Below, in pieces: positions 4,950 through 8,323 of a DNA stretch of 44,921 nt. Under the pieces are notes generated by a model. That model was not told where the DNA came from, did not search any database, and saw only the letters and a program-made list of their open reading frames with translations. This stretch comes from Candidatus Helarchaeota archaeon (GTDB lineage Archaea > Asgardarchaeota > Lokiarchaeia > Helarchaeales > RDOG01), in the NCBI GenBank assembly GCA_029838215.1, contig JALGVI010000013.1, forward strand, positions 1 to 44,921. Reading direction: 5' to 3'. The position numbers and the translations under genes were made by a program. Every line of letters begins with the position of its first letter. The stretch's first letter is position 1.

Positions 4950-6200
4950 ATGAAAGACAATGGAAAAAAAATTCCTGTTTATGCGCGACCAATATTCACG
5001 AATATAATTCTTCTCGTCCTAAATGTGTTTTTGTTCATTTTCAAAATGATATTTGGTTTCATGACGAGAAGCATTGCCTTGCAAGCAGATGCTTTTGACA
5101 GCATCACCGATGTCGTGATGGTGATTACCGGTCTCGTAGGGATAATTTTTGCCACGAAGAAACCCAACGAGCGGTTTCCTTATGGATATTATAAGACGGA
5201 GAACATCGTTAGCCTGATCATTGCCCTGCTCATTTTTTATACGGCTTATGACATAATCATGAATTCGATCCAGGCAATTCAGGGCTTTTTTCTCGGCATT
5301 CCTCGCGAGATCTTGGTAAGTCCGGAAGTTTTTATTTTCCTATTTATTTCTCTTGGTTTTTCGATTTTTTTGACCATTTTTTTGAAAATTTCGGGCAAGA
5401 AAAGCCAGTCGGTAATAATTCAGTCTGAAGCAAACGAAAAAATCTTTGATAATTTAATTTCTCTTTCGGTTATTGTTAATTTCGTCTGTGCATTTTTTCG
5501 ATTATTCATATTTGATGCCATATTTGGAATCATCATCTCATTTTTCATCATTAAAGGAGGATATGACATATTCAAGATTTCCACGAAAACCTTGCTCGAT
5601 GCTGTCGTCAAGTACGACCGCCGCGTCGAGTTGGAAGATTATTTTCGAAAAGTTCCGTTGATAAAAAGCTTGAAAAGCGTCCAAATTCGCGGTTATGGCA
5701 AGTATGTAGTTATCGAGGCAGAATTCACGCTCCGAAGAGATTTGCCTTTATCTCAAATAGAAAAATTTAAAGCTCAGTTAGAACGTGAAATAAAGAAGGA
5801 GTTTCCGAGCGTTTTTAAAGTTATAATGTTGATTCGGGCCCAATCTAAGAAGCTCGTTCGAATAGCGGTACCTTTAAGGAATAATCAGGGTCGTGAATCA
5901 GATGTTTCAGGGCATTTTGGTGAGAGTTCTCATTTTGCGATCTTTGAGATTCGAGATGGAACCTTGGTGAATCTAACGATTTTTGAAAATCCATACATGA
6001 ATGAAAAACGTCAGAAGGGGATTTTAGTTTCGGAGTGGCTCATTTCTCAAAAAATCGACAAGATTTACGTGAAAGAAAGTTTGAAAAAGGCACCAAATTT
6101 GATTTTTAACTCCAGGTTCACGGAAATCGTTCAATGCGATGTAAAGAAGTTGAAGGACATAATATTAAAAGAAATCGAGCTTTCCATTCAAGACCGATGA
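4950..6200 (+). CDS. Cation diffusion facilitator (FieF-like) fused to a C-terminal NifB/NifX-type FeMo-cofactor-binding domain
   Basis: CDF motifs ALQADAFDSITD and KPNERFPYGYYKTE, about 6 TM helices and a dimerisation domain. The C-terminal RIAVP...VSGHFGESSHFAIF is typical of the NifX family. Confidence 0.85.
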   Translation: MKDNGKKIPVYARPIFTNIILLVLNVFLFIFKMIFGFMTRSIALQADAFDSITDVVMVITGLVGIIFATKKPNERFPYGYYKTENIVSLIIALLIFYTAYDIIMNSIQAIQGFFLGIPREILVSPEVFIFLFISLGFSIFLTIFLKISGKKSQSVIIQSEANEKIFDNLISLSVIVNFVCAFFRLFIFDAIFGIIISFFIIKGGYDIFKISTKTLLDAVVKYDRRVELEDYFRKVPLIKSLKSVQIRGYGKYVVIEAEFTLRRDLPLSQIEKFKAQLEREIKKEFPSVFKVIMLIRAQSKKLVRIAVPLRNNQGRESDVSGHFGESSHFAIFEIRDGTLVNLTIFENPYMNEKRQKGILVSEWLISQKIDKIYVKESLKKAPNLIFNSRFTEIVQCDVKKLKDIILKEIELSIQDR

Positions 6201-6318: not shown

Positions 6319-6326
6319 TTTATAAG
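6319..6326 (+). promoter_or_regulatory. Archaeal TATA box (TTTATAAG) with an upstream purine-rich BRE-like run
   Basis: Lies at -30 to -23 relative to G6349, the first base of the predicted sRNA stem. Confidence 0.55.
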
Positions 6327-6348
6327 AAATATTTTGTAGTTTTTACAC

Positions 6349-6438
6349 GGAGAAGTCCGATGACAACAAAGAGCATGCTGAAGGATTTCGGGCATCAACC
6401 CTGTCCAATGATGAGCTTCATGAGTTCGAGGCTTCTCC
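6349..6438 (+). ncRNA. Putative box C/D guide sRNA
   Basis: 9-bp terminal stem GGAGAAGUC/GGCUUCUCC, box C-like CGAUGA (6358-6363), D' CUGA (6378-6381), C' AUGAUGA (6408-6414) and box D-like UCGA (6426-6429). GC-richer than the flanks and preceded by a TATA box. Confidence 0.6.
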
Positions 6439-6502
6439 ATTAATGAGATATTTTCGTAAATGCTTTTCTAGGCACATTTAAATTTGAATTTAGGTGTAGA
6501 AC

Positions 6503-8323
6503 GTGCGTATTGGAGTCATAGACACGGATCGTTGTAAGCCCAATGATTGTCGGATAGCATCACAAAAACCCCTTTGTATTCGATTCTGTCCCGTGGTAAG
6601 ATCGGGTGGAGAAGCGATAATTTTTGAAGAAGAAGAGATGGACCATCCCAGGATCATCGAAAATGTTTGCACGGGTTGCGGTATTTGCGTGAAGAAGTGT
6701 CCCTATGATGCGATTCACATCTCAAATATTGCAGAGGAACTCAAGACTGATTTCACGCATAGATATGGTGTGGGTGGATTCGTTCTTTTTCGAATGCCCG
6801 TCGTAAAACCGGGAAAAATTATTGGATTAATTGGTCCAAATGGGATCGGTAAATCAACGGTCATCAAAATTCTTGCGGGGGAACTCAAGCCCAATCTAGG
6901 ACGGCCTGGGGATGACCCTGAATGGGATGAAATCATTCGTTATTATCGGGGTTCCGAACTTCAAAATTATTTTACAAGCCTTTCGCAAGGGCAAATTAAG
7001 CTCGCTGCAAAACCACAATACATTACAAAACTTCCAGAAGTAGTAAAGGGTATTGCAAAGAGCCTTTTAGACAAGGTTGATGAACGAGGATGCATGAAGA
7101 ACCTGATTGAAAGCCTTTCGATGGAGAAATTTTTAGATAGAGAATTGACCGTGCTTTCAGGTGGAGAGCTCCAGCGAATAGCCATTGCTGCAGTTGTTGG
7201 GCGGGAAGCCGACATCTATTTCTTTGATGAACCGTCCAGTTTTTTAGATATTCGGGAGAGGCTTGAAGTTGCCAAGGTTCTTCATGAGTTGGCAGATTTG
7301 GGAAAAACTGTTGTAATAGTTGAGCACGATTTGGCAATTTGTGATTATCTAAGTGACTTCGTTCACGTTCTTTATGGAAAACCCGGCGCGTATGGTATAG
7401 TGTCTCACATTCACGGCGTGAGAGAAGGTATTAATCGATATCTCGATGGCTTTTTGCCTGATGAAAATATCAGATTTCGTCCTGAACCCATTGTTTTTCA
7501 TCTCAACCCAATTGCCTCCGATGGATGGGAGAGCATGGAAGTCGTGGCTCAATTTCCAAAGATAGAAAAAACACTGGACAATTTCAAATTGGAATTTGAG
7601 GGTGGAAAAATCTATAAAGGCGAAGTAATTGGCATCGTTGGTGAAAATGGATTGGGAAAGACCACGTTGATAAGAATTTTGGGAGGAGAGTTAGAACCCG
7701 ATCCCGGTATAGAATTACCTGCTTTGGATTTGAAAATCGCAATAAAACCCCAATATTTAAAGCCGAATTATGATGGTACGGTTGAAAATTATTTATCAGA
7801 AGTGGCGGGCAAGTCGTACCACACGAGTCTTTACAAAACAGAGGTCCTAATTCCCTTTAATTTAAAATCAATTGAAGATCGATACATCAAGGAATTATCA
7901 GGAGGAGAACTCCAAAAAGTAGAGATAGCCAGGACTCTTTCAACACCTGCAGAGTTATATTTATTTGATGAACCATCGGCATATATTGATAGTCAATCTC
8001 GTCTGACAATCACGAAGGCAATCAAACGCAACATTCAAAACAAGCACGCAACAGCATTCATCGTTGAACACGACATCCTTTGCGTTGATTTCTTGAGTGA
8101 TCGTCTAATCGTTTTTACCGGCGAAGCAGGGCGAAAAGGTATTGCATATCCACCTATTGGATTAAAAGATGGCATGAACCTGTTTTTGAAAAACGTAGAC
8201 ATTACTTTTCGACGAGATCCTAGAACGGGTAGACCTAGAATAAACAAATATGGTTCTGAATTAGACAGGAAACAAAAAGCTGCCGGAGATTATTATTACA
8301 TTTCAAAAAAAACAGAAAATTAG
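6503..8323 (+). CDS. rli: Ribosome recycling/translation factor ABCE1 (RNase L inhibitor, RLI)
   Basis: N-terminal Fe-S motifs (DRCKPNDC, CIRFCP, CTGCGICVKKCPYDAI), two ABC cassettes (GPNGIGKST and GENGLGKTT, each with LSGGELQ and DEPS), and TFRRD...RPRINK near the C-terminus. Confidence 0.98.
   Translation: MRIGVIDTDRCKPNDCRIASQKPLCIRFCPVVRSGGEAIIFEEEEMDHPRIIENVCTGCGICVKKCPYDAIHISNIAEELKTDFTHRYGVGGFVLFRMPVVKPGKIIGLIGPNGIGKSTVIKILAGELKPNLGRPGDDPEWDEIIRYYRGSELQNYFTSLSQGQIKLAAKPQYITKLPEVVKGIAKSLLDKVDERGCMKNLIESLSMEKFLDRELTVLSGGELQRIAIAAVVGREADIYFFDEPSSFLDIRERLEVAKVLHELADLGKTVVIVEHDLAICDYLSDFVHVLYGKPGAYGIVSHIHGVREGINRYLDGFLPDENIRFRPEPIVFHLNPIASDGWESMEVVAQFPKIEKTLDNFKLEFEGGKIYKGEVIGIVGENGLGKTTLIRILGGELEPDPGIELPALDLKIAIKPQYLKPNYDGTVENYLSEVAGKSYHTSLYKTEVLIPFNLKSIEDRYIKELSGGELQKVEIARTLSTPAELYLFDEPSAYIDSQSRLTITKAIKRNIQNKHATAFIVEHDILCVDFLSDRLIVFTGEAGRKGIAYPPIGLKDGMNLFLKNVDITFRRDPRTGRPRINKYGSELDRKQKAAGDYYYISKKTEN

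Follow-up and report, generated by a model that had tools for sequence, protein, structure and literature searches.

Box C/D guide RNAs directed at C34, the wobble base of elongator tRNA-Met, have been described in both archaea and eukaryotes. In Haloferax, an sR-tMet C/D particle makes Cm34 of elongator tRNA-Met (PMC4033218), acting on the intron-containing elongator pre-tRNA-Met; for this haloarchaeal family (RF02163), PMC4033218 and PMC6601510 cite Joardar et al. 2011. In Pyrococcus, the wobble position of tRNA-Met likewise has a guide (PMC7994747), and the sR41 RNA of that genus (RF01126) is compact, with 53 nt and a K-loop. In humans, Cm34 is guided by SNORD97/SCARNA97, whose D-box antisense selects C34 of elongator tRNA-Met(CAT) (Vitali and Kiss 2019, PMC6601510). 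In the haloarchaeal D guide, two bases separate AUGAG from box D (GCCCUAUGAGUG CCGA; supplement 5 of PMC2584109), a layout repeated in the Rfam sR41 consensus (GCCCUAUGAGcg CUGA) and in the human SNORD97/SCARNA97 system, and AUGAG is the complement of C32 to U36 of the CAU anticodon loop. tRNA-directed sRNAs usually carry one orphan guide (PMC7994747). C/D guide RNAs of Asgard-type archaea have barely been described: a 2021 review of archaeal C/D sRNAs (PMC7994747) makes no mention of Asgard or Lokiarchaeota, and a literature search found no catalogue of Asgard C/D guide RNAs.

Here, we describe an unannotated locus that, judged from its sequence and that of its relatives, is very likely a box C/D guide RNA gene of an Asgard-type archaeon. 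It lies in a 44,921-nt stretch of DNA (the window), contig C11 of a 3.6-Mb, 170-contig assembly with 38.6% G+C (genome G000), and occupies 90 nt on the + strand (6349-6438) between a cation-efflux gene (4950-6200, PF01545) and the gene for ABCE1 (6503-8323). A second public assembly contains the same 4.8 kb, including the sRNA, with zero differences. The host encodes fibrillarin (PF01269, 301 bits) adjoining Nop5 (PF01798, 227 bits) on contig C122, as well as L7Ae (PF01248, 102 bits). Expansion of Ras GTPases is typical of Asgard archaea, and the 69 Ras-family matches in this 3.6-Mb genome (43 of them above 125 bits) are consistent with such an origin; a search of G000 for the Asgard marker EAP30 in Pfam found none. 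Its 23S gene measures 3467 nt against a model of 2987 positions.

Table 1. Parts of the guide RNA locus in the window (G000) and their counterparts in the sister genus (G001); positions are those of the window.
Feature	Position	Strand	G000	G001	Remarks
TATA box	6319-6325	+	TTTATAA	TTTAATAA	-30 to -24 counted from G6349, the first stem base; read from sequence; at -30 with the same spacing in G001
Terminal (C) stem, 5' strand	6349-6357	+	GGAGAAGUC	GAGAGAAAU	pairs with 6430-6438; 6349-6358 reads GGAGAAGUCC
Linker			CG	GA	
Box C	6360-6366	+	AUGACAA	AUGACGA	reassigned by homologue comparison; degenerate
D' guide	6367-6377	+	CAAAGAGCAUG	CUUGGAGCAAC	11 nt in G000, set by reassigned box C; GAGCA common to both
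Box D'	6378-6381	+	CUGA	CUGA	canonical; kept in all homologues
D'-C' spacer	6382-6407	+	GGAU..GGG CAUCAA CCC..GUCC	UUUG	26-nt hairpin in G000; from fold and comparison with relatives
Box C'	6408-6414	+	AUGAUGA	UGAUGG	canonical; placed here by alignment to Rfam sR41, R1, and R2
D guide	6415-6425	+	GCUUCAUGAGU	UAUCUUUAUGAGUU	11 nt in G000; AUGAG common to relatives, haloarchaeal sR-tMet and Pyrococcus sR41
Box D	6426-6429	+	UCGA	CUGA	degenerate in G000 (canonical in G001); one base nearer AUGAG than in every relative
Terminal stem, 3' strand	6430-6438	+	GGCUUCUCC	CAAUUUCUCUC	read from sequence and fold
Two T4 runs	6451-6454, 6464-6467	+			likely archaeal sRNA termination signals (putative function)
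TATA-like box	6477-6484	+	TTTAAATT		19-26 nt 5' of the ABCE1 GTG start at 6503

A sequence-only reading of this DNA had proposed that an independently transcribed C/D guide RNA precedes ABCE1, and had listed for it a 9-bp terminal stem, a TATA box at -30 and a canonical C'/D' pair. These elements were all found in place; the stem includes one G.U, and the homologues suggest a K-turn register in which U6356 probably bulges out. This proposal gains support from a syntenic homologue with conserved TATA spacing and from the fibrillarin, Nop5, and L7Ae genes of the host. The T4 runs and the second TATA-like box that follow the sRNA make it look like a transcription unit of its own. The fold energy of the locus is unremarkable (z = -1.3). 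A whole-genome scan for the box-and-stem architecture returned 28 matches, against 0 in the reversed genome, and the only gene-like ones were this locus and one on contig C64. Boxes D' and C' are usually separated by 3-9 nt in archaeal box C/D sRNAs, and by 4-8 nt in the compact relatives considered here; the 26-nt spacer of G000 folds into a hairpin that turns the K-loop of the C'/D' motif into a K-turn-like element.

The second gene-like match (G000:C64:17237-17325 +, L216) resembles the window RNA in having a TATA box near -30, a degenerate box D (UUGA), a long D'-C' spacer (21 nt), and a terminal stem of 9 bp, and together the two suggest a lineage-typical architecture with two K-turns. 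The guides of the C64 RNA, in contrast, are GC-rich and mutually pairable, unlike those of the window RNA. Its possible target is the 23S P-loop region: the D' guide CGUCGCCCCAAC pairs with 23S positions 2670-2681 (GCUGGGGCGGCA), a match not above those of shuffled guides, and position 5 then falls on the second of the four G in GGGG, which we take to be the equivalent of P-loop G2251.

The terminal K-turn called for a different register from the one previously proposed. The degenerate C/D pair had been read as CGAUGA (6358-6363) with UCGA; box D stood, and box C proved to be two bases off, in a placement that leaves a bulge of only 1 nt. Comparison with homologues in five genomes (G001, G002, G047, G084, and G057) placed it instead at AUGACAA, with counterparts AUGACGA in G001, AUGAUAU in G002, and AUGAAGA in G047, G084, and G057; the boxes of G001 and G002 were aligned by eye because MAFFT misplaced them. 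The reassignment yields the standard 3-nt bulge (G6359 A6360 U6361) and shortens the D' guide from the 14 nt that followed from the old box C to 11 nt, so that both guide spacers measure 11 nt and fit the archaeal box C/D range of about 10-13 nt. AUGACAA and UCGA, both degenerate, pair through tandem G.A beside the 9-bp stem, the pairs being predicted as G6362.A6429, A6363.G6428, C6364.C6427, and A6365-U6426. Position 6 of box C and position 1 of box D covary, with A-U in G000 and G002 and G-C in G001, G047, G084, and G057.

The closest genome, G001, represents a sister genus of the same family (its ABCE1 is 69% identical to that of G000) and carries a syntenic 72-nt C/D RNA upstream of ABCE1 (Table 1). 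We consider it very likely that 6349-6438 is a genuine box C/D sRNA gene. The expectation that the arrangement would be conserved upstream of ABCE1 held for G001 and failed for G002, G003, G004, G005, and G006, whose ABCE1 upstream regions contain no such RNA. G002, from the same order, has its homologue at a different locus (D guide UCUCUAUGAGUU, box D UUGA), and this RNA, like the C64 RNA, is preceded by a TATA-like box. A pattern scan of 251 genomes, in which TATGAG had to lie 4-8 bases after a C' box and two bases before a D-like box, gave 38 matches versus about 26 in the reversed control, with the excess among 12-nt guides, and yielded four clear sRNA genes, in G047, G084, G057, and G002. 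The RNAs of G057, G084, and G047 score 40-46 bits against Rfam sR41 (E 4e-8 to 2e-6) and 31-34 bits against Rfam sR-tMet, and that of G002 scores 21 bits against sR41.

The Rfam search of the window returned no match at the gathering score, and its weak best match was sR41 at 9.8 bits (E 6). We built two covariance models (R1 and R2) from relatives only, without the G000 sequence; these give 25.4 bits for G002 and 19.5 bits for G001, and their top match in the 45-kb window is this locus (16.7-17.2 bits; E 0.02 and 0.01), though the genome-wide E of the same match is only 0.7. The weak score arises partly because the model aligns the 26-nt insert poorly. G000 is connected to the family through intermediates, from G057/G084/G047 to G002 by Rfam sR41 and on to G001 by the relatives-only model, not by Rfam. 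Three other genome-wide R2 matches (on C18, C62, and C101), considered as paralogues, were rejected because they fall in coding sequence or at gene starts. A BLAST search of 40 relatives with the sRNA gave short guide-region matches that we judged to be chance, and retrieval based on ABCE1 from genome and metagenome collections returned no close relatives. The D guide with box D, GCTTCATGAGTTCGAGG (window 6412-6431), recurs near-identically antisense to an HdrA-like gene with the motif CTPRTHE in many relatives (L037, L040, L041, L046, L049, and L060), though it is absent from G000 in this setting; we judged this recurrence a coincidence.

Complementarity between guide and target is evident in three relatives. 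Searching with the sequence predicted by the guides uncovered multi-intron tRNA(CAU) genes in G047, G084, and G057, and the D guides pair with their own pre-tRNA-Met over 11 Watson-Crick bp in G047 and 10-11 bp in G084 and G057, with C34 at the fifth position and a helix that reaches the intron (shuffled guides, p <= 0.004). The D' guides of G084 and G057 also pair over 9 bp with an intron of the same pre-tRNA-Met (p about 0.004). These matches indicate that a tRNA-Met guide family and its substrate exist in the Asgard-type phylum. The elongator tRNA-Met genes of G084 and G057 (L293 and L290) contain three introns each, and the tRNA(CAU) genes L248 (G001), L293, L290, and L307 (G047), with two or three introns, were all missed by ARAGORN. 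L248 (G001:C5:113780-114060) is an initiator tRNA(CAU) whose D arm, anticodon loop, and T arm are interrupted by inserts.

In the sister genus, UAUGAG-UU-CUGA puts C34 at the methylated position, and the top-ranked sites of the D guide among the tRNAs and rRNAs of G001 are two CAU tRNAs (GGCUCAUAAA), paired through 8 Watson-Crick bp and 2 G.U with C34 fifth, a pairing not above that of shuffled guides; both of these tRNAs have the initiator features A1:U72 and GGG/CCC. Wherever else in G001 a 14-mer exactly complementary to its D guide occurs, it lies in coding or non-tRNA sequence. An elongator tRNA-Met gene was not found in the assemblies of G000, G001, or G002, where only initiator-type CAU tRNAs appeared in searches by ARAGORN with introns allowed, the Rfam tRNA model, a T-arm/acceptor-stem scan, pattern scans, BLAST with the G084 exons, and a paired D and D' target scan. 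G000 yields only 28-33 tRNAs, whereas one G001 locus (L227, G001:C3:622500-632000) packs about 25 tRNA genes, many with introns, into 9 kb of one strand; an equivalent cluster is therefore probably unassembled in G000. With the sole CAU tRNA of G000, an initiator, the D guide forms only 7 contiguous pairs, and neither the G000 nor the G001 guides have complementarity scores above those of shuffled guides. As the sequence-only reading had reported, the D' guide is without a convincing target, with no match above chance in the 16S, 23S, and tRNAs of G000 and G001, including joint searches of homologous 23S positions.

The G000 guide differs from the rest of the family by one base. Three bases separate AUGAG from the GA of box D in G000, and four do so in all other members, so that the family motif UAUGAG at positions 3-8 upstream of box D, present exactly in G001 and G002, becomes CAUGAG at positions 2-7; the guide base opposite A37 is C in G000 and U in all others. 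By descent, the G000 sRNA looks like a member of the family, though not by the position of its guide. It resembles haloarchaeal sR-tMet in its terminal stem, UGACGA-type box C, nonconserved D' guide, D'-C' spacer hairpin (19-21 nt there), AUGAG D guide, and degenerate box D (CCGA there, UCGA here), and departs from it not only in the CAUGAG motif with one base fewer before box D but also in a longer terminal stem (9 bp), in being AU-rich, and in going undetected by the Rfam model. Pyrococcus sR41 shares an identical D guide core (CUAUGAG-2 bases-CUGA) with the same-phylum relatives that match it strongly, whereas the G000 RNA has the 26-nt hairpin insert and degenerate C/D boxes. SNORD97 and SCARNA97 are, unlike the G000 RNA, a eukaryotic intron-encoded snoRNA and scaRNA; common descent with them is possible.

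Taken as a whole, we consider it probable that the sRNA is a local, divergent member of the sR-tMet/sR41 family, with its own promoter, that serves as a guide for elongator pre-tRNA-Met(CAU). Its descent from that family is the firmer part of this proposal and appears highly probable, and that it still guides Cm34 is somewhat doubtful, with the balance tipped slightly against. In the proposed action, L7Ae would bind two K-turns, AUGACAA/UCGA and AUGAUGA/CUGA, the latter closed by the inserted hairpin, and Nop5 and fibrillarin would then complete the particle. The intron-containing elongator pre-tRNA-Met(CAU) would be bound at its anticodon loop by the D guide, and fibrillarin would methylate, on its ribose, whichever nucleotide lies opposite the fifth guide base counted back from box D. 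By this fifth-nucleotide rule, the methylated nucleotide would be the wobble C34 in the sister genus and all other members found and, because the G000 guide is one base shorter, A35 in G000. The pre-tRNA sites expected from the guides read ACUCAU(A/G)AAGC in G000, AACUCAUAAAGAUA in G001, and AACUCAUAGAGA in G002. Transcription, particle assembly, and the target in G000 are all predictions from sequence, and the G000 copy may function poorly, act at a shifted position, or be in decay.

The main competitor to a working guide is a real particle derived from sR-tMet that no longer directs Cm34, whether as an orphan, a decaying gene, or an RNA with another role, such as pre-tRNA chaperone or titration of L7Ae. 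The shortened spacing unique to G000, the degeneracy of both terminal boxes, and the failure of either guide to find a target above chance all speak for such a loss; yet a compensatory A-U preserves the covarying box pair, neither the promoter nor the 9-bp stem is disrupted, and 10 of the 11 guide bases equal the last 11 bases of the G001 guide when the missing base is allowed for, which together suggest continued selection, and we consider the loss unlikely. We would give a similarly modest chance to the idea that sR-tMet-type particles of this phylum also act on pre-tRNA-Met with 2-3 introns as a chaperone or clamp, ensuring that methylation comes ahead of splicing, the shift in G000 then reflecting retargeting to A35 or a noncatalytic role; here the D guide would pair across the anticodon into the intron on both sides, and the D' guide would bind the same intron in some genera.

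Explanations that place the target or function elsewhere fare worse than a tRNA-Met guide. The D guide might be aimed at a variable 23S hairpin (LSU 711-722, AACCCCUGAAGC, in G000 and LSU 707-718, AACUCUUAAAGC, in G001), since this is the best joint match at homologous positions, with 20 of 24 pairs, equaled by only 3% of shuffled guide pairs (p about 0.03), and the single guide difference (C or U) mirrors a G or A difference in the target. The helices are, however, interrupted (3+1+6 and 5+5), the base beside the methylated one is mismatched in G001 and the methylated position itself, counted from UCGA, in G000, and in relatives this guide motif can be shown to match pre-tRNA-Met; we consider a 23S target improbable. 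A cis-acting K-turn in the ABCE1 mRNA leader, for example for translational control by L7Ae binding, would fit the position of the element, which in G000 and G001 alike sits on the ABCE1 strand, 65 nt 5' of that gene. Against this, the sRNA is preceded by a TATA box of its own and separated from the ABCE1 start by two T4 runs and another TATA-like box; in G002 the homologue lies away from ABCE1, and the ABCE1 upstream regions of G002 to G006 lack any such element. We regard a leader as very improbable. Hardest of all to sustain is the original proposal that the D guide methylates 16S near E. coli position 1325. Its best pairing to the host's own 16S (C124:524-2016) is an 8-bp match at 1289-1296 (CUCGUGAA) comprising 7 Watson-Crick pairs and one G.U, the latter at the fifth position upstream of box D and thus at the very nucleotide to be methylated, and the GAAGC of the proposed segment is GAACA in G000, where 16S 1288-1299 reads CCUCGUGAACAU. 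Shuffled guides do as well: when both guides were aligned to the host's own 16S, 23S, and 28 tRNAs, no site beat shuffled guides, which equaled or bettered the real ones in 40% of cases for D and 57% for D'.

A guide for the tRNA-Met wobble position is known from Haloferax, Pyrococcus, and humans, and its occurrence in an Asgard-type phylum supports the idea of a very old guide-target pair, one older than eukaryotes. In practical terms, a search for AUGAG, two bases, and box D finds the guide, and the flanks of the guide in turn find multi-intron pre-tRNA-Met genes that tRNA finders miss. The locus at 6349-6438 itself is ordinary in its gene class and unusual in its off-by-one guide, and represents a useful annotation and no new mechanism.

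The comparison of ABCE1 neighborhoods also revealed that, in three genomes of one family, the match to ABCE1 is split into residues 1-394 and about 409-603, with a gap of 80-175 nt in between (G003:C170:13520-15397, G005:C178:206-2071, and G006:C96:10376-12304), which could be an insert or an intron-like element. In the same three genomes, a conserved GGTTGTGTT motif lies 8-12 nt 5' of the ABCE1 start codon (L255-L257), and it is duplicated in G003.
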